From positions 1-59,229 of the forward strand of contig CAZAVF010000002.1 of NCBI GenBank assembly GCA_964488935.1: DNA of 59,229 nt, in the 5' to 3' direction. The first letter of the stretch is position 1. Every line of letters begins with the position of its first letter. The position numbers and the translations under genes are program-made. This document shows positions 8,836-45,092 of this stretch, piece by piece. Under the pieces are notes generated by a model. The model worked only from the letters and a program-made list of their open reading frames with translations, ran no database searches and was not told the DNA's origin. The stretch is from an uncultured Planctomycetales bacterium. GTDB taxonomy: Bacteria; Omnitrophota; Gorgyraeia; Gygaellales; Profunditerraquicolaceae.

Positions 8836-8856
8836 GCGGCGGAGAGCCGCAGCAAA

Positions 8857-9075
8857 ATGCCTATATATGAATATAATTGCCGGGATTGCGGCAGGCGTTC
8901 CGAGTGCTTCCTGCGCAGTCCCGGGGAAGAACCGGTATGCCAGTGGTGCGGCGGCCGTGACCTGGAGCGGCTCGTTTCGCGTTTCGCCTTCAAGTCCGGT
9001 CCTTCGTCGGAAGGCCGTTCGTCCGGAGGTTGCAGCGGATGTTCCGGCGGAAATTGTTCAACGTGCGGGCATTAA
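8857..9075 (+). CDS. FmdB-family zinc-ribbon protein (CxxC...CxxC)
   Basis: MPIYEYNCRDCG....CQWCGG..LERLVS is the signature N-terminus of the FmdB/CxxC_CxxC_SSSS family. The tail is Gly/Ser/Cys-rich. Confidence 0.85.
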   Translation: MPIYEYNCRDCGRRSECFLRSPGEEPVCQWCGGRDLERLVSRFAFKSGPSSEGRSSGGCSGCSGGNCSTCGH

Positions 9076-22949: not shown

Positions 22950-23007
22950 ACGCGCCGGAAAGTTGACAAACTCCGACGGCAGCGGATAATATTATAGGGA
23001 ACTTATC

Positions 23008-24372: not shown

Positions 24373-24380
24373 GAGAAAAG

Positions 24381-30319: not shown

Positions 30320-30459
30320 ATCAATCTCCTCGCCTATATATCGTATTCAGGCGGGAGGGATTGTCCGCGTCCTTAAGGGCGCTGTTTTAGCGCCGCCCGA
30401 GTATAAATACCGCCGCCCGCAGCGCGGCCTTAGATCTTACCGCATGGAAAGGAGACAAT

Positions 30460-31212
30460 ATGTCGCGTAAAAAAACACCGGTCGCAAGGGTTTTGATGTT
30501 CTTTTCCTGGTCCGTCCCGTTGATCACGGCCGCCGCCGCCGCATCGGGAGTATTCCTGCAGGGCGGCCCGTTGTTCGTATCGGGAATATTCTTGCTGGTG
30601 ACGGCAAGCTTGATCCTTTCTGCCCTTCTGCGCATGTGCGCGAATCTTACGCAGATGATCTTCGAGATACAGAATACCATGCAGTATGCTTATAAGGAGC
30701 ATTCGGAGATGTTCTCTTCGCTCGCGGCGAACGTGCAGAGTATGCGCAGGGAGGACATCCCGGCCATAATAAGGGAGATGAACGCGCGGCTGCTTGCCGG
30801 GAATTCCGAGGCGGCTGAGGGGGTCTCGGACATGACCAGACTTCTTTCCCGGATAGCGGAAGGGCTCGACGCCCTGCCCGGCAAGGTGGGGCCGCTCCAC
30901 GAAGAAGATATGCTTATGATCATGAGAGAGCTGAACGCAAGGATGCTCTCCGGCAATGTGGAAGTTGTAGAGGGGATTAACGCTCTGTCCGCGCAGAATG
31001 AGAAAGTGCTGAATGAGTCTGCCGCGCGCCTGGAAGCCCTGCATGCCGAGCTGCAGAGGATCGGTAAGGATGAACATAAGGAGGAACTGCGTTCCTGCCT
31101 GGAAGACCTGCGGGAGATCAAAAGCAACTGCGCGCAGGTGTCCTGCGATACCAGGGACATCTCCTCTTTCTTCAGCCTGATGGAAAAACACCTGAACATT
31201 AAAAAGACATGA
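30460..31212 (+). CDS. Hypothetical membrane protein (2 TM) with coiled-coil cytoplasmic region containing an internal duplication
   Basis: GGAAAGGAGA RBS upstream. Two hydrophobic helices at aa 11-60. The repeat REDIPAIIREMNARLLAGNSEAAEGV pairs with EEDMLMIMRELNARMLSGNVEVVEGI. No family recognised. Confidence 0.6.
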   Translation: MSRKKTPVARVLMFFSWSVPLITAAAAASGVFLQGGPLFVSGIFLLVTASLILSALLRMCANLTQMIFEIQNTMQYAYKEHSEMFSSLAANVQSMRREDIPAIIREMNARLLAGNSEAAEGVSDMTRLLSRIAEGLDALPGKVGPLHEEDMLMIMRELNARMLSGNVEVVEGINALSAQNEKVLNESAARLEALHAELQRIGKDEHKEELRSCLEDLREIKSNCAQVSCDTRDISSFFSLMEKHLNIKKT

Positions 31213-32567
31213 TGCGGGTGGCTTTGGTCAATCTTCCCTGGAGCAGCGAAGGAAGGCTGGGCGTAAGGGCCGGATCCCGCTGGCCTTTTACCAGCGAACC
31301 CGTTCCCGGCGGCCGGCTGCTTTATCTGCCGTTCCCTTTTTTCCTGGCTTACGCGGCGGCGCTGTTGAAAAAGAACGGTTTCCCGGTGACGCTTGCGGAT
31401 TGTATCGCTTCCGGGGAGGGATACGCCGAGTTGTGCGGCAGGCTGTCCGCCGCACAGCCGCAGCTGCTGGCCGCGGAGATATCCGCCCCATCCCTTTCCT
31501 GCGATCTGAAGATGCTGAAAGATCTGCGGGAGGCTTTCCCCGCGATGAAGATCGCCGTTTGCGGGGCCCACGCCACGGCGAGATACGCGGAACTGCTCGA
31601 GAACGGCCCGTTCATAGATTTTGTCCTGCGCGGGGAATACGAACCTGTCCTGCTCGATCTTTCCAGGGCGCTGGATTCCGGCCGCGGGCCGGACGGTATA
31701 CTGGGACTCGTCTGCCGCGGTCCCGGGGGGGAGATCAGGGCGAACGGTGCCCGCCGCATTCAGGATCTCGACAACCTGCCCTGGCCGGAACGCGGTGACC
31801 TGCCGCTGTTGAATTACAACGACGGGTTCTGCGGGCTGCCTTCCCCCAACGTCCAGATGCTTTCCAGCCGCGGTTGTCCGCTGGGATGCTCGTTCTGCCT
31901 CTGGCCGCAGACCGTATATTCCGGGGGGGAATACCGCTGCAGGTCGGTTGTCGATGTAGCCGATGAGTTTGAATCCCTCGCCGCAAAAAAGGTGTTCAGA
32001 GCCGTTTATTTCGACGACGATACATTCAACCTGCGCAGGGAGCGCGTTTTGTCCCTCTGCGCCGAAATAAAGAGAAGAAAATTGAACGTGCCGTGGGCGG
32101 CCATGGCGCGGGCGGACCTGATGGACGAAGAATTGCTCTCCGTCATGGCGGATGCCGGGGCGTACGCGGTGAAATACGGTATAGAATCGGCAGATCCCCG
32201 CGTGAACGAGCTGTGCGGCAAACGCGCGGACCTCCGGCGTTCCCTGGAGATGATACGTTCCACCCGCAGGCACGGGATAAAAGTCCATCTCGCTTTTTGC
32301 GTCGGCCTGCCAGGGGAAGATAAGGGCACCCTGGCCAAGAACACGGAGTTTGTCGGCATGGCCTCCCCCGATTCCCTGCAGGTCTCTTTCGCCGTACCTT
32401 TCCCGGGCACGGCGTATTACGACCTCGTTTTAAAAGAGGGGCTGCTTGCGTCCGGCAACCTGGATGATTATGACGGCAGCCGCATGTGCGTGGTGAAGAA
32501 CCCGGGGCTTTCCCCGTCGGATATGGAAAAGGCGAGAGATGCTCTCTATAGTTGTTGCCGTTTATAA
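31209..32567 (+). CDS. B12-binding-domain radical SAM protein (class B rSAM), second copy
   Basis: N-terminus MRVALVNLPW...; rSAM motif SSRGCPLGCSFCLWP. ATGA overlap with the upstream gene. Confidence 0.85.
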   Translation: MMRVALVNLPWSSEGRLGVRAGSRWPFTSEPVPGGRLLYLPFPFFLAYAAALLKKNGFPVTLADCIASGEGYAELCGRLSAAQPQLLAAEISAPSLSCDLKMLKDLREAFPAMKIAVCGAHATARYAELLENGPFIDFVLRGEYEPVLLDLSRALDSGRGPDGILGLVCRGPGGEIRANGARRIQDLDNLPWPERGDLPLLNYNDGFCGLPSPNVQMLSSRGCPLGCSFCLWPQTVYSGGEYRCRSVVDVADEFESLAAKKVFRAVYFDDDTFNLRRERVLSLCAEIKRRKLNVPWAAMARADLMDEELLSVMADAGAYAVKYGIESADPRVNELCGKRADLRRSLEMIRSTRRHGIKVHLAFCVGLPGEDKGTLAKNTEFVGMASPDSLQVSFAVPFPGTAYYDLVLKEGLLASGNLDDYDGSRMCVVKNPGLSPSDMEKARDALYSCCRL

Positions 32568-33411
32568 CGGTTCTTCCGTGATCGAAAGATGTCTGGAGTC
32601 CCTGCTTTCCCAGGAGTGCCTGGAGGCCCCGGAGATCATAGTGGTGGACAATGGCTCTTCCGACGGCACCGCCGGCATCGTCCGGGAACGGTTCCCCTCG
32701 GTGACCCTGCTGGAGAACGGGAAAAATCTCGGCGCGGCGGCGGCGAGGAACCTCGGCATATCGGCGTCCCGGGGGGAGTGGGTCTTTACTTTCGACTGCG
32801 ATACGGTGGCCGGCAAAGGTTTCCTCTCGGCGGTCGAGTTCCTGACCGGAGCGGAAGAGGGGTCTATGGTAGGGATAATCCAGCCTCTGATATTAGGCTC
32901 CGGGGGCGGAAAGGTATTCTCCCGCGGGATAAGTCTGGATTTCTTCTGGCGTTTCAGCGATATAGACAGGGACGAATCCTGCCGGAAGAGCGAGCGCAAC
33001 CCGGAACGCATAGACGCCGCCTGTTCGGCGTGCGCCGGTTACCGCAGGCGCATGCTGGAAGAGATAAAAGACGGCCACGGGTATTTCGACGAAAGATTCT
33101 TTTTCATGGTGGAGGACGTCGACCTCGGGATGAGGGCCGGTATGGCCGGATGGAAGACCGCGTTCTGCCCGGGCGCGACGGCTTATCATTACGGCAACTC
33201 TTCCGGATTTTCCCGCAGGGAAAGACAGTATCTTTGCTGGAGGAACAGGAAGTTTATGCTGAAGAAGATGAAAAAAACGCCGCTGCGCGCCTGCGCCGCC
33301 CGCTTGTGCTACGATCTGCCGAAAGACACCGTTCTGTTCTTTCGCAACTTTCATGTGAGACGCGCCGTGCTCCGCGGCAGATATGACAATCCCCGGACGT
33401 CTGCCGTTTGA
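32539..33411 (+). CDS. GT2 glycosyltransferase
   Basis: LSIVVAVYNGSSVIERCLESLLSQ....IIVVDNGSSDGT, and a DxD-like FDCD. Confidence 0.85.
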   Translation: MLSIVVAVYNGSSVIERCLESLLSQECLEAPEIIVVDNGSSDGTAGIVRERFPSVTLLENGKNLGAAAARNLGISASRGEWVFTFDCDTVAGKGFLSAVEFLTGAEEGSMVGIIQPLILGSGGGKVFSRGISLDFFWRFSDIDRDESCRKSERNPERIDAACSACAGYRRRMLEEIKDGHGYFDERFFFMVEDVDLGMRAGMAGWKTAFCPGATAYHYGNSSGFSRRERQYLCWRNRKFMLKKMKKTPLRACAARLCYDLPKDTVLFFRNFHVRRAVLRGRYDNPRTSAV

Positions 33412-33500
33412 GGATTCCCTTGTTCCCTCCGGAGGGGTAAGCGGTCTTGGCGCGGGGATGCGCCGGGTTTTTCCCGGCCGCGGCCGGACTATGTCACTTA

Positions 33501-33509
33501 TGGTATAAT
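33501..33509 (+). promoter_or_regulatory. Extended -10 promoter element (TGGTATAAT) in the 377-bp gap upstream of the GT2/RiPP-like cassette
   Basis: TGgTATAAT at 33501-33509. The same extended -10 wording recurs upstream of other operon starts in this window (45216, 58615, 1828). Confidence 0.45.
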
Positions 33510-33788
33510 TGTGTTATACTGAAAACCGGGGCATCCCGGGGGCTGCCAGGGGGGCCGGGTTCTATACCTGCGCGGCCGGGAGACCGCGTCATCTCCGGCC
33601 CTTATGGGATCCGGCCGTTTCTTCGGGGATTACGAAGGACGGCGCATTGTTCCTTTCCGGAATAACCGCGGGCGCCTGTGCCGGACAGCTTGAGAGGCCC
33701 GCTGCTGAAGTCCGTCCAAGGATCAGTCAGCGGCGCGCCGAATTGATCGCGCGAAAGATCCCTTTCACGCGCCGCAGAAAGGTTTTTT

Positions 33789-34502
33789 ATGCCGGGGCTG
33801 GAGATCATAGTTCCCGTACATAACGAAGAAGAGACGATCGCGGAAACCCTGTCGAGATTAAGAAAAGAGGTCAGGTACAGTAACCGCGTGACCATAGTGG
33901 ATGATCATTGCGACGACGGCTCCCTGGAGCGGCTGAAGGGGCCGGATGCGGCAGGCGATAATACAGAACTGGTCAGCAATGAGAACCGCAGGGGATTCGC
34001 GAATGCCCTGAGAAGGGGTATAAAGAATGTCCGCGGATCGGAGGACGCGGTGGTCTTCGTGATGGCGGACGGGTGCGATGATCCGGCCGACATAAACAGG
34101 ATGTTCGAATTAGTGAAGAACGGTTACGACGTCGTTTGCGCCTCGCGTTTCCTGCCCGGCGGTAAAAGAGAGGGCGGCGACCCGGTGAAAAGCCTGTTCT
34201 CTTACTTCGGGAACAGGATATTGACCGTCTTGTTGCCGGGCAGGTTCACCGACTGGACGAATTCTTTCAAGATATACAGAAAAAGGGTCATTGACGAAAT
34301 AAGCCCGTTGAGCAGCGGTTTTGAGATTTCCCTGGAACTGGCGGTGAAGGCATCGGAAGGCGCTTATTCGATCAAGGAAGTTCCCACGGTATGGAGGGAG
34401 CGGGACAAGGGCGTCTCCAAATTCGGCTTTAAGGACGTCCGCGGATATTTAAGGTGGGTCATGTTTGCGCTGGCCTTTAGAATCGGGTTGAGAAAAACGT
34501 GA
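33789..34502 (+). CDS. GT2 glycosyltransferase, polyprenol-phosphate sugar synthase (DPM1/ArnC)-like
   Basis: LEIIVPVHNEEETIAETL.....VTIVDDHCDDGS, ...VFVMADGCDDP, CASRF. Size 237 aa. Confidence 0.8.
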   Translation: MPGLEIIVPVHNEEETIAETLSRLRKEVRYSNRVTIVDDHCDDGSLERLKGPDAAGDNTELVSNENRRGFANALRRGIKNVRGSEDAVVFVMADGCDDPADINRMFELVKNGYDVVCASRFLPGGKREGGDPVKSLFSYFGNRILTVLLPGRFTDWTNSFKIYRKRVIDEISPLSSGFEISLELAVKASEGAYSIKEVPTVWRERDKGVSKFGFKDVRGYLRWVMFALAFRIGLRKT

Positions 34503-34515
34503 GGTTCACGCCGTT

Positions 34516-35562
34516 ATGGAAGAGATGAAACTGGTAAGTTTTTACGTGACCCAGAAATGCGGCCTGTCGTGCTCGCATTGTTTCGGTCTGGGCCGTGACC
34601 TTTTCCCGGATGAAGAGCTTTCCGGGGAGGATTTCTGCCGCGTGCTGGACGAATTATCCGATATAGACGTGATAAGGCTGCTGGGAGGAGAATGTCTGTG
34701 CGAGTGGGACAAGGTGCTTGAGATCACCCGGCACGCTTCGCGTCTGGGGAAGAGAACGGTGATCCTGACCAATACAGAGCTGCTGAACGGGGAACGGGTG
34801 CGGCTGCTTAAAGAGGCCGGCAATTGCATCATACAGGTCTCCTGCGAAGGCATGGGCGCGGTACAGGATTGCGTCAGGGGCGACGGGTATTTCGAGAGAG
34901 TGCTGTGGAAGATCAAGCTGATCAGAGAGCACTCCATCCGCTGCAATATGGTGGTAACTTTGACGCCTCATAACATCGGGCAGATCGCGGATATCTATGC
35001 CATGGCCGCCAATCTCGGCATAATGAAGGTCGTATTCTCGATGGTGCTTGAGGTGAACGGACGGGACGGACTGCGCCTGCCGTTCGGGCAGTTTGAGAAG
35101 GGGATGGATGATCTCGCCGGGGTCTTTAAGGATCACGGCGGCAGAAAACCGGTGCAGATAGGTTTTTCCCCCCTTCTGGTGAATTATCTTTACGCCTGCG
35201 ATAATCCCTGGCTGCGGGACAATTGCGGCAGCGAGATCCGGGAGGCGGCCCATAGGCTGAGAAAATGCGTCCATCAGGGGAAGTTCTGTTTGTTCCCCAA
35301 CGGGGACGTTTATCCCTGCCCGTTCCTCCCTTATCTGAAAAACCCGCCGCCTCCGGCCGGTAATATTAAGAAGCAGCCGGTAACGTTGATCCGCCGGAGC
35401 ATAAAAGAGATGTTCGGCAGGATCAATGTGAAGGATCAGGAGTGCAACAATTGTAATTTATTCATGGACTGCGGCGGGGGGTGCCGCGCCAGGGCTTACA
35501 GGGATACCGGCAGCCTGGATGGGGTAGACGGGGGATGTCCGGTAAGGTCAGCAGGGGTGTAA
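34516..35562 (+). CDS. Radical SAM/SPASM-domain peptide-maturase-like protein
   Basis: FYVTQKCGLSCSHCFG (CxxxCxxC). C-terminal SPASM-type cluster CVHQGKFCLFPNGDVYPCPF...CNNCNLFMDCGGGCRARAY. Confidence 0.85.
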   Translation: MEEMKLVSFYVTQKCGLSCSHCFGLGRDLFPDEELSGEDFCRVLDELSDIDVIRLLGGECLCEWDKVLEITRHASRLGKRTVILTNTELLNGERVRLLKEAGNCIIQVSCEGMGAVQDCVRGDGYFERVLWKIKLIREHSIRCNMVVTLTPHNIGQIADIYAMAANLGIMKVVFSMVLEVNGRDGLRLPFGQFEKGMDDLAGVFKDHGGRKPVQIGFSPLLVNYLYACDNPWLRDNCGSEIREAAHRLRKCVHQGKFCLFPNGDVYPCPFLPYLKNPPPPAGNIKKQPVTLIRRSIKEMFGRINVKDQECNNCNLFMDCGGGCRARAYRDTGSLDGVDGGCPVRSAGV

Positions 35563-35589
35563 TAATTAGAGAAGAGAAAGGGGTATTCC

Positions 35590-35751
35590 ATGCATATGCA
35601 GCGTAAATGGCGGGATAAAGAGGCGGGAGGGGAACCCGCCGCCGGGAAAATGAAATACGTCAAGCCGGCGATGGAAAAGGTGGTCATCCCCAGACCGGAA
35701 GAAAAAGATTTCCATGCCGGGTGCACATGCTGCACCTGCGGCTGCAGTTGA
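35590..35751 (+). CDS. Unannotated small ORF: candidate RiPP precursor peptide with Cys/Thr-rich C-terminus (53 aa; possible alternative 33-aa form from the ATG at 35650)
   Basis: Hand translation: MHMQRKWRDKEAGGEPAAGKMKYVKPAMEKVVIPRPEEKDFHAGCTCCTCGCS*. AAAGGGG RBS about 7 nt upstream of 35590. It fills a 204-bp gap in an otherwise tightly packed cassette. It is below the 60-aa cutoff of the ORF track. Confidence 0.6.
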   Translation: MHMQRKWRDKEAGGEPAAGKMKYVKPAMEKVVIPRPEEKDFHAGCTCCTCGCS

Positions 35752-35766
35752 GCATTCAGCGGTAAG

Positions 35767-36759
35767 ATGCGAAGCGGACCGTTTTCGGGGGGGGAGATGG
35801 AGAAATCCGGCGCCGGGGAAAGAGCCGACTTCAGGATATTCCTGGGAATAGAGAAAGGCAACGGTTTCCTGCAGAAGATAGTCTCACATCTGGAGATATT
35901 CGAATGCCGGCAGGCTTCTTCCAGGGAGGAGGCGGATATTGTGCTGGAATTCAGCGATATCTCCTGCCTGGAAGAAAAAACATGCCGTCTCCCGGAAATG
36001 GACGGTAATATATCTATCTGGGGCCCCTGGCATTACAAGTATCCGGACAACAGCAAGATCGTCGCGAGCTGGGGATTAAAGAACCCTTCCCGGGCGGTGA
36101 TCGATATAGATAGAAGAAGCATACGGTTCTTTATTTCCCCGTATCACTGGGACAAGCCGGATCTGGTACCCATAAGGTTCATCAAAGGGGCGATATACCT
36201 GCTTTTATTGTACAGCGACGTTTATTCTTTCCACAGTTCATGCCTGGCCGACGACCGCGACAACGCCTATATGTTCATAGCCCCTTCCGGGCAGGGGAAA
36301 AGCACGGTGTTGAGGAATCTCCTTAAAGAAGGTTTCCGGTGGATCGCCGACGACCAGGTTTTCCTGAAGGCCGCCGGAAGCAGGATATGGGCCTTCTCCA
36401 TATTCAACCAGGTCGGGCGGAATAACGATATAAACCTGGTCAGGGAATTAGGCAGGGCAAATTGCGTGAGTTCAGGGGCTTTTCTGAAATCGGTGGTCGT
36501 GCTTTCCGTGGCGCCCGGGGAAAGGACCGTCATATCTTCCCTGTCCGGTGATGAGGTGCAGGATATCTTCCGGCGTTCCCGCAAGTTCTTTAACTCTACA
36601 TACCTGGAATCGGATCACGATTATCTCAAGGAGCTGTATGAACGGTGGAGCGGGGCGCTGAGGCGGTCCTGCGCGTTCTTCAGAATGGAGTGCGGAGAGG
36701 ACGTCAAGGACGATCCGGCGCTCCTGCATGAAATACTGTCAAACGCCGCCGTATTGTAA
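35767..36759 (+). CDS. HPr-kinase-C-terminal-domain-like P-loop protein (HprK-related kinase / ScmC-like)
   Basis: The P-loop in context, YMFIAPSGQGKSTVLRNLLKEGFRWIADDQVFL, resembles the HprK/P C-terminal kinase domain (G-x-S-G-x-G-K-S...aDD). The start is uncertain (35767 or 35797). Confidence 0.6.
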   Translation: MRSGPFSGGEMEKSGAGERADFRIFLGIEKGNGFLQKIVSHLEIFECRQASSREEADIVLEFSDISCLEEKTCRLPEMDGNISIWGPWHYKYPDNSKIVASWGLKNPSRAVIDIDRRSIRFFISPYHWDKPDLVPIRFIKGAIYLLLLYSDVYSFHSSCLADDRDNAYMFIAPSGQGKSTVLRNLLKEGFRWIADDQVFLKAAGSRIWAFSIFNQVGRNNDINLVRELGRANCVSSGAFLKSVVVLSVAPGERTVISSLSGDEVQDIFRRSRKFFNSTYLESDHDYLKELYERWSGALRRSCAFFRMECGEDVKDDPALLHEILSNAAVL

Positions 36760-36770
36760 GGGAGGACTAT

Positions 36771-37043
36771 ATGGAAAAAGAAGTTTACGGGATAGACAAG
36801 GAAAGGGTAGCCTGGAGGGACATCGAAGGGGAGATAACGATACTAGACAAAAAGGCCGGGGAATTCTTTCATTTGAACGCCGCGGCCTGCAGGATATGGC
36901 ATTTGATCCAGGACGGAGCTTCGGTAGATGAGATTATTTCCGATCTCGGGGGACATTTTGACGCCGGAGAAGAAACGCTGCGCGGGGACATAACCGCTTT
37001 TGTGGGCGAACTTTCCGGGAAAGGGTTCATTAAACGGCAATGA
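36771..37043 (+). CDS. PqqD-family peptide chaperone (RiPP recognition element)
   Basis: 90 aa. VAWRDIEGEITILDKKAGEFFHLNAAACRIWHLIQDGASVDEIISDL...DITAFVGELSGKGFI is the textbook PqqD pattern. Confidence 0.85.
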   Translation: MEKEVYGIDKERVAWRDIEGEITILDKKAGEFFHLNAAACRIWHLIQDGASVDEIISDLGGHFDAGEETLRGDITAFVGELSGKGFIKRQ

Positions 37044-38116
37044 GCGTCGACAGCGGCATAGTCCTGAATAAAGGGATATCCCTGCAGTGGCACATCACTG
37101 AGCGCTGCAACTGGGACTGCCGGCACTGCTACCGCGGCGATATAGCCTCGGAACTGCCGCTCGAGAAACTCTACGCCGTTTTTCTGCAGTTCATCCAGTT
37201 CCTCGATATTTTCGGGATCCCGCGCAGCATGGCCAGATTGAACCTCGTCGGAGGAGAGATATTCATGCGGGAGGACTTCCTCGATTTCCTGGACAGGATA
37301 AGCCCGTATAACGACAGGTACCGTCTTAAGATCCTGACCAACGGCTCTTTGCTGAATAAGGAGGTGGTGGCGAGGATAAAGGCGGCCGGCGTTCACACAC
37401 TTCAATTGAGCGTGGAAGGCATAGGTGAGACGAACGATAGAATAAGGGGGCAGGGCACATTTTCCGGCGTGTTGAAAACGATCGAATTCCTGACCGCCAG
37501 CGGGATGTCGGTGGTGGTCTCCGTTACGCTGGCGAAATACAACCTGCGCGAGATACCGGAGCTCATAGATACTTTTACGGGGATGGGGGTCATGAAACTG
37601 GGTATCCGGCGGCTGGTCCCCATAGGGAATCACCGGAAGGAACTTTTCTCAGGGATGCTCAGTCCCGGGGAGCAGAGGGATTTCTATATGATGCGTTATG
37701 ACCTGGCGAAAGCGGACGCGCGCGGCAAGCAGGCGGTCTATAATCATCTTTGCTGCGAGGACGGCATTTTCTTCCAGGAGGAAGGTCCGGCCGGGGAGTA
37801 TGACAGTCCGGCGATACCCTTATGCGGGGTGCTGAGCAACCGTATCCTGACCGTCATGCCCAACGGCGATGTCCTGCCTTGCCGGAGGCTGCCGATCGTC
37901 CTGGGCAACGTGTTGGAGAGCAGTCTGGTGGACATATGGTTCAGTTCGAAGGTCCTCAACGCTCTGAAGGACCCGCGGCGCGCGGCCCCGGAATGTAAAG
38001 AGTGTAAATATTTCGATTCGTGCAGGGGAGGGGCCAGGTGCGTGAGTTACGGGTATTTCGGTAAACTGGATGCCCCCGATCCCCAGTGCTGGAGATTATT
38101 TAAACGGCTGCCTTAA
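37040..38116 (+). CDS. Radical SAM/SPASM-domain peptide-maturase-like protein (PqqE-like)
   Basis: HITERCNWDCRHCYRG. C-terminal SPASM cluster LCGVLSNRILTVMPNGDVLPCRRL...CKECKYFDSCRGGARCVSY. ATGA overlap with the PqqD gene. Confidence 0.85.
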   Translation: MSVDSGIVLNKGISLQWHITERCNWDCRHCYRGDIASELPLEKLYAVFLQFIQFLDIFGIPRSMARLNLVGGEIFMREDFLDFLDRISPYNDRYRLKILTNGSLLNKEVVARIKAAGVHTLQLSVEGIGETNDRIRGQGTFSGVLKTIEFLTASGMSVVVSVTLAKYNLREIPELIDTFTGMGVMKLGIRRLVPIGNHRKELFSGMLSPGEQRDFYMMRYDLAKADARGKQAVYNHLCCEDGIFFQEEGPAGEYDSPAIPLCGVLSNRILTVMPNGDVLPCRRLPIVLGNVLESSLVDIWFSSKVLNALKDPRRAAPECKECKYFDSCRGGARCVSYGYFGKLDAPDPQCWRLFKRLP

Positions 38117-38132
38117 GTATCAGAGGAGGATT

Positions 38133-39110
38133 ATGAGAAAGAATAGAGCGGTTTTGGCCTGCGGGATAATTCTGGCGCTGGCGGTCAACGCCCGGTACGC
38201 GTACGCGGAGACCGTCCTTCTAAAGTCGGGAAAGAAGGTAGAAGGCAAGATCGTGGAAAGGAACGAGGTCTATATAAAGGTCATGATCGGGGAAGGGATA
38301 ACCGCCCCTTATTTCCTGAGCGAGATAGCCGGGATCGACGGTGTCCCTCCCGTCTCGCGCGCGTCCGGAGAGGGGGTGGAGGAGAAAGAGGTAAAGAAAG
38401 AAGGGAAGGGCGGCCCGGAAGAATTGAACGCAGGCGAGATCGTCTCCAGGATGCTGGATGTTTACGGCGGAGCCGCAAAATGGGAACAAATAGAAGGGTG
38501 GACCTGCGTAACCAGGGTGGCGTTCCCGGGGACGGGAGAAACATGGGAAACGACAAGCTACGTCAGACTGCCGGAACAATTCCGTTTTGACCTGAAAGTG
38601 AGCGGCGGCAAAGGCGCAGGGGAATTCAGCCTGGTCTCTTATAAAGGGGCCGTGAAATATTTTTCCGGCGGAAGGCAGACGAAAGACATCCCGGAGGCAT
38701 ATAAGAGGCAGCTCTATAAGACCCTTCAAAAGGCGAGGAGGACCAGGGCCCCCGCCCAGACCCTGTATTTCTACGAGATCAGGAACCAGATGGTATTTGC
38801 CGGTAAACAGGATGTCAACGGCAGGGAATGTTATATACTGAAATATGAAGACGACGAGGGACCCAAAGGAAGGCTTTTTGTGGATGCGAAGGATTTTCGC
38901 AGTCTTAAGCTGGAATTGGACGAGGATTCCGGCAGACAGGGACAGGAGTGTTTCCTGGGGGAAAAGCTGATAGGGGACCGGGGAATAAGTTTTCCCGCTT
39001 CCAAGTCGGTATATAGCGGCAAGACGCTGGTAATGAGTTCCGAGACGGTGTCCCTGTCTTTTTCCCCTCCGGGGGAGACCTCCTTTGTGACCGGTAAAGA
39101 GAACCGATGA
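38133..39110 (+). CDS. Secreted hypothetical protein, paralog A (LolA/RseB-like fold suspected)
   Basis: GAGGAGGA RBS. Signal peptide MRKNRAVLACGIILALAVNARYAYA. Shares MLDVYGGAAKWEQIEGW...GRECYILKYED blocks with the next two genes. Confidence 0.65.
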   Translation: MRKNRAVLACGIILALAVNARYAYAETVLLKSGKKVEGKIVERNEVYIKVMIGEGITAPYFLSEIAGIDGVPPVSRASGEGVEEKEVKKEGKGGPEELNAGEIVSRMLDVYGGAAKWEQIEGWTCVTRVAFPGTGETWETTSYVRLPEQFRFDLKVSGGKGAGEFSLVSYKGAVKYFSGGRQTKDIPEAYKRQLYKTLQKARRTRAPAQTLYFYEIRNQMVFAGKQDVNGRECYILKYEDDEGPKGRLFVDAKDFRSLKLELDEDSGRQGQECFLGEKLIGDRGISFPASKSVYSGKTLVMSSETVSLSFSPPGETSFVTGKENR

Positions 39111-39919
39111 TCAGGAGCACCCAGGTTCTTTTCTCTTTAGTTCTTTCTGCCGGATTGACGCTTAACGTGTTCTCTTTCTGCCGGGCCGGCGACGTCCGGG
39201 CGGGACATGCCGTAAAAAGAGGGAACGGCGCCTCCGGGAAGACGTCCCCGGATGTCCCGGAGATTATTGCGAGAATGATGAACGCCTATGGCGGCGTAGA
39301 GCAGTGGCGGAACATAAACGGCTGGAGCATATTTTATACCGGGCTGTATAACTGCAAGCGGCCTTATGATCTCAGGATCTATGCTTCCCTGCCGGATAAA
39401 TTCAGGCTGGATTTCAAGTACACGGAAGGGAAACCGGACCTGTTCCAGATATTTTGTTCCGGAGACCGGGTGGAATATCTTAAGAACGGCGTCCGACTGG
39501 GGGACGCGGGGGAAAGCGCGGAACTGCAGGATATGGAACACATCCTTGCGGCGGCGAGAAGGCGGCAGGCCCCCGGGAGCCCGGTGGATTTCTACGACGA
39601 CCGCGGGCAGTATTATTTCGCCGGGGAAAGGACGCTCGGGGGCAGGAAGCATTACGTCCTGGAGAAAAAGGAACCGGTGCAGCGCGAAAAAAGAAGGGTC
39701 TTTGTCGACGAAGAGACATTTTTCGTGACCAAACGGGAGTTCGACAAAATAAGAGGCAAGTTCGTGGAGCTGTATATAAAAGGGGAACCTTTCAGGATCG
39801 GCGGGCTCGTTTATCCTTCGCAGCGCTGGGCTTACCATGACGGCAGGCTCGTCGACAAGCTGAAGGTGACTTTTTTATCCCTGGACTCTCCGGACGATAA
39901 AGTGTTCGACCTCCCCTGA
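39107..39919 (+). CDS. Secreted hypothetical protein, paralog B
   Basis: Signal-like N-terminus. MMNAYGGVEQWRNINGW...GRKHYVLEKKE blocks. ATGA overlap with paralog A. Confidence 0.65.
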   Translation: MIRSTQVLFSLVLSAGLTLNVFSFCRAGDVRAGHAVKRGNGASGKTSPDVPEIIARMMNAYGGVEQWRNINGWSIFYTGLYNCKRPYDLRIYASLPDKFRLDFKYTEGKPDLFQIFCSGDRVEYLKNGVRLGDAGESAELQDMEHILAAARRRQAPGSPVDFYDDRGQYYFAGERTLGGRKHYVLEKKEPVQREKRRVFVDEETFFVTKREFDKIRGKFVELYIKGEPFRIGGLVYPSQRWAYHDGRLVDKLKVTFLSLDSPDDKVFDLP

Positions 39920-39934
39920 GGCGAAGGAGGCATC

Positions 39935-40756
39935 TTGAAAAAGACACGGTTGGCGGCTGTCGTTGTTATGTTGTTCATCGCGGCTGCGGGCGCATATGTT
40001 TGTTCCCGTTCCCGCATCTCTCCCGGGCCCGCGCCGGACGCGGACGGATTGACCCCAAAGCAGATAACCGCCAGGATGATGGCGGCGGTGGGCGGAGAGG
40101 CGAATTGGCGGAAGGCGGAACGCAGCGGTTACAGTATGGCGTTCTCCATGGTGGATTACGCGGCGGGAGTGGACAGAAGGGTATGCGCCTCGATGCTGCC
40201 CGGCGGCAGGATGAGAATAGAATTCGAGACCTTCCGGGGGCCGCGGAAATTGACGCATTTGCTGCTTATCGAGACCCCGGGCAAACAGGCGGTCTTCGAG
40301 AACGGGAAACGGGTGTATCCGCCGTGGAACGGGCCGGAATATCAGTATCTACTGGAAAGCAGGCTGCAGGAAGAGCTGCCGAACCTGCCCACTTTCTTTC
40401 TCAAAATACACGAAGACGCGGATAGCGCCAGGTTAGTCGGCAAGAAGAATGTCCTCGGGAGCCCGTGCTATATCCTCTCGTGGAAGGGGCTTTTCAAGGA
40501 GAAACGCGCGGCCATCGACGCCGAGACTTTCTATCTGCGGGAAATAGAGATACTGAAACCGCACAAACGCATAGAGAAATATTATCAGAGGGACCGGAGA
40601 TTCGGCGACGTCTTCTTCCGCAGGGTCAAGGAGGTGTGGATCAACGGAAAGCCGAGGACCATATTACTGTTCTCGTATCTGTCGTTCGATCCCCCCGACG
40701 AAAGCCTGTTCCGTGCCGAAGATGACCGGCCGGAGCGCGCCGTCGGCGGCGAATAG
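39935..40756 (+). CDS. Secreted hypothetical protein, paralog C
   Basis: TTG start with GAAGGAGG RBS. Signal-like MKKTRLAAVVVMLFIAAAGAYVC. MMAAVGGEANWRKAE...GSPCYILSWKG blocks. Confidence 0.6.
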   Translation: MKKTRLAAVVVMLFIAAAGAYVCSRSRISPGPAPDADGLTPKQITARMMAAVGGEANWRKAERSGYSMAFSMVDYAAGVDRRVCASMLPGGRMRIEFETFRGPRKLTHLLLIETPGKQAVFENGKRVYPPWNGPEYQYLLESRLQEELPNLPTFFLKIHEDADSARLVGKKNVLGSPCYILSWKGLFKEKRAAIDAETFYLREIEILKPHKRIEKYYQRDRRFGDVFFRRVKEVWINGKPRTILLFSYLSFDPPDESLFRAEDDRPERAVGGE

Positions 40757-40842
40757 CGGCATCCGGCTCCTCCGCGTCATCGGCTCTGTACTTCTTAACC
40801 AGTGAAACATGTCCCCAGGTCCAACCGGAGCCCCGGAACCCG

Positions 40843-42378
40843 TCAAAACCCCCAGATTTTCCTGCCGATAGTTTTATTTATCGTCTCCCTGTCTTTTTCC
40901 TCGAATCCTTTATTGAAGAAGGACACGGCCAGATAAAGTGACACCGCGCACAAGAATGCGCCTGCCAGCGAGAACGCGTCTTTTATGAGCGGGCGCAGCA
41001 GGAATAACGGGACGGCGGACAGCAATATGTTGACGGTGAAGACGGCGAAAGACCTCCAGGGATATGCCAGGGGGATGATCCTGCCGGTGGCGGAACGGAA
41101 ATAGAGGATTATCGCGATCCCGGTGATCCCGGTGGCGAAGACCGCCCCCGGCACCCCGTAAAGCGGTATCAAGATAAGGTCCAGTGCCAGATTGAGCAGG
41201 GAGATCAGCCCGGTGATGAATATTATCCGCGTCCTTTCCAGCGTGAATAAAAGCGGTGTGTATACGAACCCGAACTGGTGCACGGCTATGAATGCCAGGG
41301 AAAGCCTGAACAGGTTGGCCGAACCGGCGTATTCCGGGTTCAGCAGGAAGAGGATTATCTTGTCCGCCAGCACCATGGCGAAGACGAACAGCGGGATCAT
41401 CAGGAAGTAAGTGATCCGGTTAAGGAACGAGAAGAGGTAGAAGAAATTACCGGTATCCTTTTCTTTCGTATAATTCCTGATGGAGACCGTTTTCAGGACG
41501 GGATGGAGCTTGTTCGCCGGTGAGAGCTGCATCAGCAGCAGGGGGATGCCGAAACAGACGGAGTATACGCCGACCTCCCGCTGTCCGAGAAAATAAGAGA
41601 TCAGGAAGATATCCAGGCCTTTTCTGCGGAAGAACTGCGTCAGTTTGTGGAAATAAAGGAACTTGGCGAAGTCGAAGAACCTTCTCAGCGGCAGCTTCAC
41701 TATATCCTCTTTCTTTACCGGCAGGAAGAAGATGTCCCTGCAGGCTTTGCCCATCAAGAGCGTGAAAAGCAGCGCCTCCGATATCAGCCAGCCCAGCAGT
41801 ATCCCGTTGATGCCGCGATGCAGCCGGAAAGCCAGGTAGAAGGAAACCAGCTTCACGAAGCTATAGGTTATGCTGCACAGGCTCCAGTAGAGGTTCTTGA
41901 AGAGGGAGACCATTGCGATGTCCCCCAGGAGATAGGATTCCGTGCTCAGCAGGGTTATGGCGGCGAGGACGGAGAACAGTTTGGCGGAATGCAGCGGGAG
42001 GTTGAAAACAGCCGCTATCTTCGTCCTGGCGAGAAATACGGCGGAGAGAACGGCCAAAAGCGAAAGCAGGCACAGCAGCATGGCGAAAGCCAGCACGCGT
42101 TTCTTCAGGTAGTTGTTCCCGGTCTCTTCGTATTCCGGAAGATATCTTTGTATTATCGAGTCGGTCCCGGCGAAGGCGACCGTCTGTATGAAGAATACTG
42201 CGGCGAGGAGGAAATTATAAAAGCCGAATTCTCCCACCGCGAGCTTCTTGAGCACGTAGATAAGGGAGAGAAAATTAAAAAGAGAGGCGGCCGCGGCGGT
42301 GAAATACTGGAAGAGAGAGGCGTGGAATCCGGCGCTCAGCAGCTTCAGCGAGAAAGAGGGACCGCCGGTCTTATCCAT
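40843..42378 (-). CDS. Polysaccharide/oligosaccharide flippase (MOP superfamily, Wzx-like)
   Basis: 511 aa, about 12-14 hydrophobic helices, with the typical basic loops of polysaccharide biosynthesis (Wzx) proteins. Confidence 0.7.
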   Translation of the reverse strand: MDKTGGPSFSLKLLSAGFHASLFQYFTAAAASLFNFLSLIYVLKKLAVGEFGFYNFLLAAVFFIQTVAFAGTDSIIQRYLPEYEETGNNYLKKRVLAFAMLLCLLSLLAVLSAVFLARTKIAAVFNLPLHSAKLFSVLAAITLLSTESYLLGDIAMVSLFKNLYWSLCSITYSFVKLVSFYLAFRLHRGINGILLGWLISEALLFTLLMGKACRDIFFLPVKKEDIVKLPLRRFFDFAKFLYFHKLTQFFRRKGLDIFLISYFLGQREVGVYSVCFGIPLLLMQLSPANKLHPVLKTVSIRNYTKEKDTGNFFYLFSFLNRITYFLMIPLFVFAMVLADKIILFLLNPEYAGSANLFRLSLAFIAVHQFGFVYTPLLFTLERTRIIFITGLISLLNLALDLILIPLYGVPGAVFATGITGIAIILYFRSATGRIIPLAYPWRSFAVFTVNILLSAVPLFLLRPLIKDAFSLAGAFLCAVSLYLAVSFFNKGFEEKDRETINKTIGRKIWGF

Positions 42379-43552
42379 GTTTGACCACGGTTGTATTCTC
42401 CGGCTCCCCTCCGCCGGAGAACAGCCTGCAGAGCATGAACAGGAAGCGTATCCTGTAGAGGGTTTCCGTTTTCTTCGCGTACAAGGGCAGCCCGTAGAAT
42501 TTGGCGAATTCCTCCCTGGTAACGCGGAGCACGTATTGCGCCGGCTCCAACAGGCAGTCGTAGAGAAGAAAATGGGACTGTAGATAAAGACGTTTCGGAC
42601 GGGAAAGCGCCCGCATATTCATGGCGTTCCTTTCCACGAACATCCTTATAAGCAGGCGTTTCCACGCCGGCACACGCAGCCGCTTCATTACCTGCCGCGG
42701 CGGACGGTAACCGGCGAAAAGTTCCGCCTGTATCAGCGCGAAGAAAAGTGTCGTCCGCATCCCGCCTTCCTCCGCTTCCCGGCAGACGTAGTCCCAATCG
42801 AAACTCCCGGCGTGCCGTTCGAGCAGGAGGGCGGCGTCGAGCGAGTTTTTAAGGCATAAGGGATCCCCGAACCTTCGCTGGTGCAGCGCCAGACTGAACA
42901 GAGTGTCCTCGGGAGAAAGCATATTTATCTGCGTCCCGCCGGTCCGGAACGCGCCGGTCCTTTTCCACATTTCCGGCAGTATGCGCTTGCGTCTTTTAAG
43001 GTCGACGGCAAAATGCAGCTCCAGCAGCCAGTTGCCGTCTTCCTTGAGAAAGGGGATATTGAGGTTCCGGTATCTCCAATAGTGATACGAGCCTTTCCCG
43101 AGATGTTTCCTGTAACCGTGTCTCTCCAGGAGACTTTCCGCTTTCTCCAGGTCCTCTTCCCGTACCAGGATATCCATGTCTTTCATCGGCCTGACGGGGT
43201 ATTGGCTGTAAATATCCGCCAGGAGGGCCAGACCTTTAAAAGGGAAGATATCGATATTCTCTCCCTTGAATATATTATGCAGTCTGATAAATTCCTCCTG
43301 GAACCGTATATTCCTGGCAAGGTTGAGGTCGTATTTCCTTTTCAGGTCGTCCAGTAACATTTTATCCGCCGTATCCTCGGAGCGCCTGAAGAGAAGATAG
43401 GCGAACGGCGTCAATTTATGATATTGCAGCATTTTTATAAGCGTCCAGCGGTCTATCCCGGCGTCGAGAGGGACCGGAACGGCCCCGGGATCGGCCCAGG
43501 CGGAGAGGATCTGTTTGAGAATAACCGCGGCCGGTTCCTTATCTTTTTTCAT
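42371..43552 (-). CDS. Nucleotidyltransferase-family protein (NTP_transf_5-like)
   Basis: ...ENIDIFPFKGLALLADIYSQYPVRPMKDMDILVREEDLEKAESLLERHGY....LLELHFAVD matches the 'uncharacterised nucleotidyltransferase' pattern (lKG..la...Y....R...DiDlLV......a...L...GY....lElH). Confidence 0.65.
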   Translation of the reverse strand: MKKDKEPAAVILKQILSAWADPGAVPVPLDAGIDRWTLIKMLQYHKLTPFAYLLFRRSEDTADKMLLDDLKRKYDLNLARNIRFQEEFIRLHNIFKGENIDIFPFKGLALLADIYSQYPVRPMKDMDILVREEDLEKAESLLERHGYRKHLGKGSYHYWRYRNLNIPFLKEDGNWLLELHFAVDLKRRKRILPEMWKRTGAFRTGGTQINMLSPEDTLFSLALHQRRFGDPLCLKNSLDAALLLERHAGSFDWDYVCREAEEGGMRTTLFFALIQAELFAGYRPPRQVMKRLRVPAWKRLLIRMFVERNAMNMRALSRPKRLYLQSHFLLYDCLLEPAQYVLRVTREEFAKFYGLPLYAKKTETLYRIRFLFMLCRLFSGGGEPENTTVVKHG

Positions 43553-45092
43553 AGCAATACACCCACATCCCCTGGAATTCCTTTTCCAGCTTCAATCTAA
43601 GACGGTCATCCAGTCTCTTTTTAACGAGATAAGAATTATAGTCCACGGTTTTTCCTCTCGGCCAGTCGCAGGCGAGGACGAAAAGCCTTTTGAACTCCAT
43701 GTCCCCGGTCTTGTCCAGCGGGATATTGAACTCGCTCTCTTTTTTGGGTTCCATATAACTCGGCGTAAGGCAGCCGGGGGCGAAAATAAAACGGAATCTG
43801 CCCAGGCGTCCGGCCTCGTTCTTTTTGCGCTTGTCGAAGAAAACGTGGTTTTTCCCTTCGCTGTACCAGATCAGGGGCAGTTTGAGGGAATCGTTGGTGA
43901 AGGCTATTATGTCCCCGTCCCCGGAATTCGCCTTGAGGAATTCCACCGCCGCTTTGAACGGTTTCTTCAGATGCACGCCGACGTGGTGGCTTAAGGCGGC
44001 CGGCATACGGTCGGTAAAGAAGCCGTGTATGCCCAAGGCGACAAGGAAAAAGGCCGCCGCCAGGAATACCGCGCGCAGTTTTCTTCCCAGGGCGTCCAAT
44101 CCGGCCCCCAGCAGCAGGTAGTAAAAAGGCGCGGAGACGATAAGCCCGCGGTCGAGGTACATAGGCACGAATAGACGTGAGAAGGCGAACGCGGCCAGCA
44201 CCGGGAAGGCGAGGAGCAGGCAGGAGAAGCCGGCCGTTTTCCTCTCCGCAGGATTTCTTTGTATCCTGCGGAGAGCGGCTGCGCACAGGACAACGGCGAC
44301 CGCATCGAAGAGCCGGTAGGCAGCCAGGGAGCTGTTATAGCCCAGCACGAAATTCTCGAGGGTTATCGGCAGCGATCTCCATCCCGGGGGAGGTATCCAG
44401 TATGCGTTGAGCGTGTGAGACAGTCTTGTCCAGGATTGCGCCAGCAGGGGGATAAAAGCGGCCGCGGTCAGCGCCGTCCACAACGCCGATCCCGACAGGC
44501 GGTCCTTCCCGGAATAAACGAAAAAACAGATCACCTGCGCCGCCGCGAAGAAAATGTAATAAGGATGGGTATAAATACCGGCTATGGCGCACGCCAGCGA
44601 CACGAAAATGTATTTGCGCGTTCCGTATGCGGGTCCTCCGTTGTCCTGCCGGACGATGGAAAGATACTGGAAATAGGCGGAGGCAAGGGCGCAGCATGCA
44701 AGCATACTGTAACAGCGCGCTTCCTGGGCGTACCACAACTGGAAAGGGGAGAGGGCCGTCAATAGCGCGGCATACAGCCCGCACCGCCTGTTGAAAAGCT
44801 CCTTGCCTAAAAGGTATACCAGGAGTACGCATATCGAATTGAACAACAATGAGGGGAACCGCAGGCTTGCCTCTGAGAATCCGAAGATCTTCGTCCAGCC
44901 GGCCATAATAAAATAATACAGCGAGGGATCCGGGATCTTGAATATGCTCAATTTGCATATCCGTATCACGGTAATTATTTCATCATACCAAAGGTCGTGG
45001 TATCCTATATGCCAGGCCCTGATGATAACGCCGGCCGTAAGGATCAGGCATGGTATCGCTGGGATACGTTTGGGGAAAGGGTCGTTGGTCAT
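43539..45092 (-). CDS. GT-C fold glycosyltransferase (family 39 / ArnT-PMT-like) with C-terminal soluble domain
   Basis: Multi-TM N-terminus with an early HDLWYDEIIT (D-E motif in the first loop) and about 11 helices. About 150-aa C-terminal non-membrane domain. Confidence 0.7.
   Translation of the reverse strand: MTNDPFPKRIPAIPCLILTAGVIIRAWHIGYHDLWYDEIITVIRICKLSIFKIPDPSLYYFIMAGWTKIFGFSEASLRFPSLLFNSICVLLVYLLGKELFNRRCGLYAALLTALSPFQLWYAQEARCYSMLACCALASAYFQYLSIVRQDNGGPAYGTRKYIFVSLACAIAGIYTHPYYIFFAAAQVICFFVYSGKDRLSGSALWTALTAAAFIPLLAQSWTRLSHTLNAYWIPPPGWRSLPITLENFVLGYNSSLAAYRLFDAVAVVLCAAALRRIQRNPAERKTAGFSCLLLAFPVLAAFAFSRLFVPMYLDRGLIVSAPFYYLLLGAGLDALGRKLRAVFLAAAFFLVALGIHGFFTDRMPAALSHHVGVHLKKPFKAAVEFLKANSGDGDIIAFTNDSLKLPLIWYSEGKNHVFFDKRKKNEAGRLGRFRFIFAPGCLTPSYMEPKKESEFNIPLDKTGDMEFKRLFVLACDWPRGKTVDYNSYLVKKRLDDRLRLKLEKEFQGMWVYCYEKR

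Follow-up and report, generated by a model that had tools for sequence, protein, structure and literature searches.

We analyzed a 59,229-nucleotide stretch of contig CAZAVF010000002.1 (assembly GCA_964488935.1), hereafter the window, from an uncultured bacterium of the GTDB phylum Omnitrophota. Here a small open reading frame (ORF) at 35590..35751 on the plus strand lies among genes for radical S-adenosylmethionine (rSAM) enzymes with SPASM domains, a PqqD-family chaperone, and an HprK-related, kinase-like protein. On the evidence of sequence comparison, this ORF is a real, strongly conserved coding gene under purifying selection; it starts at its upstream ATG, encodes a peptide with a leader/core layout, and in three divergent lineages is linked to genes of the rSAM/SPASM, PqqD, and HprK-related types. 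The peptide is, in our judgment, quite probably the precursor of a peptide made on ribosomes and modified after translation (RiPP) with a Cys-rich core, which the surrounding rSAM/PqqD/kinase-like cassette would make and modify. The cassette as a whole is most likely a rare, previously undescribed RiPP system that depends on rSAM enzymes and a RiPP recognition element (RRE) and combines lasso-type tailoring genes with an unusual five-Cys core. A set of hypothetical and generic radical SAM genes would thereby become a testable pathway with a defined substrate of 53 residues, a recognition motif, and a nine-residue core.

A conserved small gene with a five-Cys core

The ORF runs from ATG to TGA (53 codons plus stop) and encodes MHMQRKWRDKEAGGEPAAGKMKYVKPAMEKVVIPRPEEKDFHAGCTCCTCGCS. 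It occupies a 204-bp gap between the end of an upstream rSAM/SPASM gene at 35562 and the next ORF, which opens at 35767, and a Shine-Dalgarno site, AAAGGGG (35577..35583, +), stands 6 nt ahead of the ATG. Position, ribosome-binding site, and gap size are exactly as the initial annotation had described them. Its label "unannotated" holds for the ORF track with a 60-aa cutoff, whereas the exact 53-aa sequence is already present in a protein collection (source NCBI).

Codon alignment and motif comparison across seven peptides divide the product into three parts. Residues 1-21 (35590..35652, +) form a variable N-terminal leader part that is charged and weakly constrained, with a proportion of nonsynonymous differences (pN) of 0.15-0.57. 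Residues K22-G44 (35653..35721, +) form a conserved leader part carrying a Y-V-K-P-x-M motif and are the probable recognition site of the chaperone (RRE), judging from the motif. The core CTCCTCGCS (C45-S53; 35722..35748, +), with five Cys, two Thr, and a terminal Ser, is identical in five orthologues. The hydrophilic leader followed by a Cys/Thr core that had been proposed for this ORF is thus borne out by a charged, variable leader and an invariant core. The window holds 1024 stop-to-stop segments 30 aa or longer, and the one with the five-Cys tail is the sole such segment to have at least four Cys in its last nine residues. We saw no second copy of the peptide and no other Cys-tailed small ORF in the window except an unrelated FmdB-type zinc-ribbon protein (8836-9075, +; PF09723, 44 bits), a member of a known regulatory family with a Cys-rich tail, ...GCSGCSGGNCSTCGH.

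We gathered orthologous loci by fetching the contigs of relatives of the peptide and of the kinase-like protein. A search of 5.8 billion proteins with the peptide returned one relative (P0002), and a profile search of 5.8 billion proteins returned only four close clusters (at 90% identity). The one named entry among them is MCK4809547.1 (P0007), a "hypothetical protein" from Candidatus Omnitrophota. A scan of GTDB genomes found a single locus, in an Omnitrophota metagenome-assembled genome, which is the sole GTDB species genome with the cassette, and a scan of JGI metagenomes added nothing beyond two loci already known. Samples that carry the cassette include JGI 3300002701 and 3300001592, as well as run SRR943319 with accessions adjacent to it. 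The peptide family is therefore extremely rare, and its named carriers belong only to Candidatus Omnitrophota, a phylum that has come to light almost exclusively through metagenomes. Altogether we obtained five distinct orthologous loci with enzymes 51-91% identical to those of the window and with the small ORF in the same place in all five. Besides the window peptide, the orthologues are (V)HMQRKWKDNDGVSRQGEPAAGKMKYVKPQMEKVVIPRPEEKDFHAGCTCCTCGCS at locus L001, (V)HMQRKGQDQGGVPGDEHVARKLKYVKPLMEKVVVPKPEEKDFHAGCTCCTCGCS at L015, MHNEEEEKPFPNIQARDANQQRKYVKPAMEKVIIPEPEKKDFDSGCTCCTCGCS at L011, and MHMHKRDKERRDAGIQEEHVNQEKKYVKPTMEKIIIPEPEKKEFDSGCTCCTCGCS at L019. With a more distant locus, L020, six homologous ORFs lie between the first rSAM gene and the kinase-like gene. 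Of the six possible frames, only the plus frame used by the ORF runs without a stop through every one of the six homologous loci.

The codon-pattern and dN/dS (ratio of nonsynonymous to synonymous substitution rates) comparison that the initial annotation had suggested gives a clear picture of low dN/dS, third-position bias, and a frame that stays open at the orthologous loci. From KYVKP to the stop codon, the proportion of synonymous differences (pS) is 0.11-1.0 versus a pN of 0.03-0.14 in the codon alignment. The four more distant pairs that allow a calculation give a dN/dS of 0.04-0.08 for this segment, and the closest pair, L011-L019, gives 0.33, a value that comes from 5 differences only; for the whole ORF the ratio is 0.14-0.32 where computable. 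Differences in the segment fall mostly at third positions (5/1/15 by codon position, window versus L011), and GCTCCTCGCS is invariant though its codons vary (TGC/TGT, ACA/ACG, ACC/ACT, and GGC/GGG). The first 20-24 codons are weakly constrained (pN up to 0.57) and contain indels in multiples of three without stops. Between the window and L011, the core is 100% and the 32 C-terminal residues are 72% identical, whereas the flanking enzymes are only 51-62% identical. Divergence of the DNA starts immediately past the peptide stop codon.

These comparisons bear on two other readings of the gap, both of which we regard as far less credible than a full-length gene. One holds that the peptide ORF is a chance frame and that the gap owes its conservation to a regulatory element in RNA or DNA. 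When the gap was shuffled 5000 times, 519 of the shuffles held a complete ORF of 53 aa or more. The length of the peptide ORF alone is thus not significant, and this frequency of about 10% would suit a chance frame. The core-coding stretch can also form a hairpin (35717-35740), which is a by-product of the TGC/ACN codon repeats. Against these points stand the codon-position substitution pattern and the low dN/dS, as well as the openness of the peptide frame, and of no other, in all loci. The initial annotation had named disruption of the ORF in syntenic cassettes and RNA covariation in the gap as findings that would speak against a gene. The ORF is intact at the orthologous loci, and RNAalifold credits covariation in the gap with only -0.44 kcal/mol, most of the pairs being invariant. 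We rejected the RNA-element reading in the absence of meaningful covariation, and an Rfam scan of 33000-37000 at E<=1 also gave no match; the probability left to a chance frame is negligible. The other reading places translation at an internal ATG (35650), yielding a 33-residue MKYVKP... peptide and leaving the upstream 20 codons untranslated. The poor conservation of the N-terminal 20-24 codons would agree with it, as would the presence of the internal ATG in the window and in L001. This internal start, which the initial annotation had adopted, fails at the level of the family: three of five orthologues (L015, L011, and L019) have Leu, Arg, or Lys in place of its Met, and in L011 none of the codons ATG, GTG, and TTG occurs after the upstream ATG and before KYVKP. 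All orthologues keep an ATG or GTG at the same place upstream, with a Shine-Dalgarno site 6 nt ahead of it (variants AAGGGGG, AAAGGGG, AAGGAGG, and GGAGGGG at the same distance), and only there are site and start codon both conserved. The upstream codons, moreover, keep the frame open with indels in multiples of three. Because the internal Met is not kept, L011 lacks an alternative start, and only the upstream Shine-Dalgarno site and ATG/GTG are conserved, the product is likelier, from the sequence comparison, to be the full-length peptide (53 residues in the window and 53-56 across orthologues); we consider internal initiation very unlikely.

A GC-rich hairpin, GGCGGGAGGGGAACCCGCC, lies at 35622-35640 within the variable leader-coding part and was flagged as terminator-like on the minus strand in our scan. 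This leader stretch is not conserved in L011 and L019.

Two distant loci extend the family. L020, whose kinase-like protein is 36% identical to that of the window, encodes the peptide MRQAKQEEKEAEIQHKQKFVKPRIEELIISPSKERRARGAWCACAGCGFGCACSAT directly behind an rSAM/SPASM gene. In L029, the peptide MKQKAKREKKRRYEKPKGKKEFLEPEMKKGQKFNEIISSCGCSNCGCSACW (tail ...EFLEPEMKKGQKFNEIISSCGCSNCGCSACW) is encoded directly ahead of an rSAM gene whose product is 45% identical to the second rSAM enzyme of the window; downstream of that gene follow a ScmC-type protein, two PqqD genes, and a Transglut_core3 protease, with NTP_transf_5 and PMT_2 genes upstream. All seven peptides contain exactly five Cys, all in the C-terminal core, behind a charged, Cys-free leader, and a [YF][VL][KE]Px[MI] motif is found in seven of seven, 15-20 residues ahead of the first Cys. 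The L020 and L029 peptides thus share the plan, with C-terminal cores different from CTCCTCGCS. Retention of the five-Cys plan and not of the sequence gives a practical guide to precursors in cassettes of the ScmC type. No Pfam or NCBIfam family matched the scanned peptide variants (NCBIfam to E 10 for five orthologues and to E 1 for the L020 peptide), so the peptide is not a member of the SCIFF, ACGX-repeat, or other precursor families curated there. The YVKPxM/YVKPAM motif of the window family resembles YxxPxL, a motif conserved in the leaders of actinobacterial lasso peptides and discussed in connection with leader-RRE binding (PMC6784204).

The enzyme cassette around the peptide gene

The peptide gene sits between two rSAM/SPASM genes and near the PqqD and HprK-related genes, in keeping with the initial proposal that it encodes a precursor for the surrounding rSAM/PqqD cassette. 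The features expected of RiPP precursors in general are present: a short gene conserved with maturase genes, a leader motif with a separate core, and a PqqD-like RRE.

The first rSAM/SPASM enzyme (34516..35562, +; 348 aa) has no fused RRE, matches Radical_SAM (57.6 bits) and SPASM (26.1 bits) above cutoff, and is 59-61% identical in L011 and L019. The second (37040..38116, +; 358 aa) also matches both Pfam families above cutoff. An N-terminal RRE domain is absent from both enzymes, with CxxxCxxC motifs that begin at residues 15 and 23; this absence fits a stand-alone PqqD chaperone. Such a chaperone is encoded at 36771..37043 (+; PF05402, 57.2 bits, cutoff 23.4). Its best NCBIfam match is the lasso PqqD chaperone, at 43.6 bits and below the cutoff of 70. 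The structures in the PDB closest to both rSAM enzymes are the thioether synthases SkfB (6EFN) and CteB (5WGG). Enzyme 1 also weakly matches the anaerobic sulfatase maturase family TIGR03942 (62 bits; PDB 4K36/4K37).

The HprK-related P-loop kinase-like protein is encoded at 35797..36759 (+). Its ORF opens at 35767, and the gene probably begins at 35797 (MEKSGAGE...): that ATG is preceded by a strong G-rich Shine-Dalgarno site, GGGGGGGAG, and the 90% identical orthologue P0003 has the same start. In L015, the gene caller extended the kinase-like gene upstream into the peptide ORF. Direct family matches of the protein are weak (Hpr_kinase_C, E 0.0095; TIGR04352, E 1.4e-4), and it reaches 21 bits against a curated equivalog cutoff of 200. 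A protein search returned only four relatives, and an exhaustive hidden Markov model search of 1.84 billion representatives returned two close clusters (P0005 and P0009) plus 239 weak matches. We sampled 32 of these proteins, namely, P0009 and 31 of the weak matches; they matched HprK-related kinase A (30 of 32), HprK-related kinase B (29), HPr(Ser) kinase (26), and ScmC (16). The assignment as HprK-related follows from a profile-profile match: hhalign against HprK-related proteins from RiPP clusters (23 sampled relatives) gave a probability of 99.9% and E 6e-35 over 286 columns. A profile search of the family against PDB sequences gave nothing below E 1.

Invariant residues of the kinase-like family include H156, G177-K178 in the Walker A motif (GxGKS/T), and D196, which is the second residue of an acidic pair. 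The first residue of that pair is Asp in five of six sequences (ADD in the window) and Asn in P0009 (END). From a motif reading made without an alignment, this pair may correspond to D158/D159 of the lasso kinase PsmK, a predicted metal-binding site that has been mutated (PMC6993621). Most relatives with readable loci sit in lasso-type or other RiPP clusters with PqqD, NTP_transf_5, Transglut_core3, and sometimes rSAM genes; two further loci, L032 and L033, were too short to show a peptide. L025 (3411-9562), for example, holds a lasso-type cluster (a 570-aa protein, Transglut_core3, PqqD, HprK-related, and NTP_transf_5) together with an rSAM gene, and its 58-aa precursor carries an FVKPTL leader motif. 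L030 (1543-4379) holds a RiPP-like cluster with an HprK-related protein, a 2OG-Fe(II) oxygenase, and PqqD, as well as two tandem 53-aa peptides, ...GKLEENTSGFAGSPPVMN and ...GKLKENTSGFNGSPPICL.

The conserved block (33789-45092) extends in both directions from these genes. At its upstream end, a GT2 glycosyltransferase of the polyprenyl-phosphate-sugar synthase type is encoded at 33789..34502 (+; Pfam/NCBIfam). Downstream of the second rSAM gene lie three paralogous secreted proteins (38133-39110, 39107-39919, and 39935-40756, all +). All three have a hydrophobic, signal-like stretch at the N terminus and the RMMxAYGG..W motif in common; apart from a faint LolA-like hit (PF17131, E 0.028) no family matches them, and they are conserved in L001, L011, and L019. 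A multi-pass membrane protein (40843..42378, -), with 9 transmembrane-like segments and 63% identity in L011, is labeled MOP/Wzx-type flippase-like on the basis of precomputed Polysacc_synt matches of its orthologues (weak in L001) and a weak HfsF match; the window protein itself has no Pfam match even at E<=10. An NTP_transf_5 nucleotidyltransferase (42371..43552, -; PF14907, 154 bits) follows; L025, L027, and L029 also have such a gene together with HprK-like and PqqD genes. The last member is a GT-C glycosyltransferase (PMT_2; 43539..45092, -; PF13231, 58 bits), conserved in L011 and L019. An 11-gene block is syntenic in L001, L011, and L019, with the GT2 gene in addition moved to the other end: a 39-40% homologue of GT2 stands at the opposite end of the cassette in L011 and L019. 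GT2, MOP flippase-like, and GT-C (PMT_2) proteins form the classic trio for extracytoplasmic glycosylation, and here the three genes are conserved with the peptide cassette.

A proposed pathway and other chemistries

We propose that translation from the ATG at 35590 would yield the 53-residue precursor, whose leader segment K-Y-V-K-P-x-M-E-K-V-x-I-P would be bound by the stand-alone PqqD chaperone. PqqD would then present the core CTCCTCGCS to the two RRE-less rSAM/SPASM enzymes encoded on either side of the peptide gene, and these would modify the five Cys. Intramolecular thioether links from Cys sulfur to carbon are our leading guess for the core chemistry; granted that the peptide is a RiPP precursor, we put this guess at somewhat less than an even chance. 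SkfB and CteB as nearest structures fit a sacti- or ranthipeptide and do not prove it.

The HprK-related protein and the NTP_transf_5 enzyme could add a phosphate, then a sugar or nucleotide, to a Ser or Thr of the core, with Ser53 as the obvious candidate. The model is lasso peptide tailoring, in which the kinase and the NTP-transferase PsmN act on the C-terminal Ser: both paeninodin and pseudomycoidin receive a phosphate there, to which a hexose is then added in pseudomycoidin (PMC6993621). By this analogy, we consider such tailoring possible, with roughly one chance in three. For the terminal Ser as a kinase target, which the initial annotation had also suggested, the family gives a divided answer. 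Ser53 is invariant among the close relatives, whereas the two distant peptides end ...CACSAT and ...CSACW. Because these relatives do not end in Ser, phosphorylation of a terminal Ser is not a general rule, and the modification target therefore need not be the last residue.

More speculatively, the flippase, the GT-C enzyme, and the three secreted paralogues may serve export and extracytoplasmic handling of the product. Recurrence of PMT_2 together with NTP_transf_5 in the distant L029 cluster is a hint that the GT2/flippase/GT-C trio belongs to the pathway, although its membership is speculation.

Several observations weigh against this account. The chemistry is something we infer by analogy, and the kinase activity of the HprK-related protein is read from its motifs; an AlphaFold2 model of that protein (5-sequence alignment) reached a predicted local distance difference test score of 42 and is unusable. 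Similarity of the rSAM enzymes to SkfB and CteB is modest (46-55 bits), and every enzyme scores under the cutoff of its nearest NCBIfam family. We compared both with four thioether-synthase families: the SCIFF maturase (TIGR03974), PapB (NF047865), SkfB (TIGR04403), and StsB (NF045574). Enzyme 1 scores 50 (cutoff 425), 58.9 (340), 55 (300), and 72.3 bits (625), respectively; for enzyme 2, only StsB appears among the best 25 of 73 matches, at 55.9 bits and far below cutoff. With Cys packed as densely as CxCCxCxC, the core has few residues that could accept bridges of the classical sacti or ranthi type, and the distant peptides lack the terminal Ser. The conserved block contains no leader peptidase and no dedicated ABC exporter, and the link between the peptide and the glycosylation and secreted-protein genes comes from synteny in few lineages.

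Two different chemistries could be drawn from the same genes. The peptide might be exported and use its five-Cys tail mainly to bind metal, as a metallophore of the metallothionein or chalkophore kind or as a ligand of Fe-S; other reactions, such as Cys-to-formylglycine oxidation, epimerization, or methylation, would then fall to the rSAM enzymes. Spacing of the C-x-C and C-C type with small residues, which recalls metallothionein motifs, is kept as a pattern, not as a sequence, across the three core types, and the weak match of enzyme 1 to the sulfatase maturase family points the same way. The conserved block, however, has no metal transporter or metal-responsive regulator, the best structural relatives of the rSAM enzymes are thioether synthases, and two SPASM enzymes with an RRE are the usual setup for covalent modification of a core, all of which makes a metal-binding role unlikely. 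Somewhat less probable still is a route in which the HprK-related protein phosphorylates the core Thr and Ser, elimination follows, and Cys addition closes lanthionine-like rings as in class III/IV lanthipeptides, with the rSAM enzymes adding other modifications. Such a route would make sense of a core that is nearly all Cys and Thr/Ser, of at least one Ser beside a Cys in all three core types, and of the kinase-like protein as the most constant partner of the peptide. Yet we detected no lyase or lanthionine cyclase domain in the cassette in Pfam and NCBIfam scans, and the L020 core offers one Ser and one Thr for five Cys. The sampled relatives of the kinase-like family, moreover, occur mostly in lasso-type or other RiPP clusters, and in characterized lasso systems the phosphate stays on the peptide. 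Our favored explanation therefore stays a precursor in which the rSAM enzymes modify a Cys-rich core.

Relation to known systems and neighboring genes

The composition of the cassette is that of SynChlorMet (ScmC, TIGR04249; ScmD, TIGR04248; ScmE/ScmF, TIGR04250/04251): an HprK-related protein, a stand-alone PqqD, and two rSAM/SPASM enzymes. ScmC matches occur among the sampled relatives of the kinase-like protein, and precomputed Pfam matches to ScmC are also attached to distant relatives. True ScmC members are found, for example, in a cassette of Syntrophobacter fumaroxidans. The window proteins themselves stay far below the SynChlorMet cutoffs or do not match, at 123.7 and 70.9 bits versus 400 for ScmE, 64.3 and 43.8 versus 400 for ScmF, and 25.1 versus 100 for ScmD, with no match to ScmC. 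To our knowledge, the descriptions of the SCM families state that a precursor had not been identified. The best curated match of rSAM enzyme 2 is the rSAM of the ACGX-repeat system (TIGR04340), which aligns end to end (residues 13-352 on model positions 3-339) with a score of 155.7 bits versus a cutoff of 400. In that system, as in that of the window, an rSAM/SPASM enzyme is paired with a peptide in which Cys and small residues abound, whereas the window-family peptides have no ACGX repeats and no NCBIfam match at E<=10.

Sacti- and ranthipeptide systems (SkfB/SkfA, CteB with the SCIFF peptide, and PapB) likewise combine rSAM/SPASM maturases with a short precursor bearing a C-terminal Cys core. 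Their maturases have a fused N-terminal RRE (our alignments begin at PDB residues 99-113), whereas here the RRE is a separate PqqD; the window core is far denser in Cys (five of nine residues), and the cassette adds a kinase-like protein, a nucleotidyltransferase, and glycosylation genes. With the lasso peptides paeninodin and pseudomycoidin (HprK-type kinase, PqqD-like B1, and PsmN), the window shares an HprK-related protein, a PqqD, and an NTP_transf_5 nucleotidyltransferase. The window precursor also ends in Ser, and relatives of the kinase-like protein lie in lasso-type clusters with Transglut_core3. Unlike lasso precursors, the window core has no ring-forming Asp or Glu, and two rSAM/SPASM enzymes take the place of the cyclase and B2. 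We rejected a lasso reading because the conserved block contains neither an Asn-synthetase-like cyclase nor a Transglut_core3 leader protease of the B2 type. Among the scanned window ORFs, which were all but a few, the only transglutaminase-like protein (3903-6266, +; 787 aa; TPR, DUF3857, and Transglut_core) lies ~30 kb away and is not of the lasso B2 type.

Our literature search found no published account of such a cassette or of SynChlorMet, nothing pertinent on the ACGX system, and for radical SAM, RiPP, and HPr kinase together only general genome mining. The combination of two rSAM/SPASM enzymes with the kinase/chaperone/nucleotidyltransferase trio otherwise seen with tailored lasso peptides has no description in the literature that this search returned. 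A bolder proposal, which we advance only as doubtful, is that the window family founds a precursor-defined RiPP class. Such a class would be marked by a YxxPx(M/I/L) leader and a five-Cys "CxC" core, acted on by RRE-less rSAM/SPASM enzymes with PqqD in trans, then by an HprK-type kinase and NTP_transf_5, and possibly by GT2/flippase/GT-C glycosylation. It would supply the long-missing substrate type for ScmC/SynChlorMet-like cassettes.

In the 377-bp gap ahead of the GT2 gene, a hairpin and T-run resembling a terminator (33446-33467) precede a promoter-like site (33491-33520). From these consensus matches, the pair may mark the start of the cassette transcription unit. Further upstream, a run of genes at 21045-33411 (+) is shared with the closest lineage, L001, only and is absent beside the cassette in L011 and L019. 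We saw no precursor-like small ORF for this run, which encodes one GT2-rSAM fusion, two B12-binding rSAM proteins, four other rSAM proteins (two with SPASM), three GT2 proteins, and one protein of unknown type.

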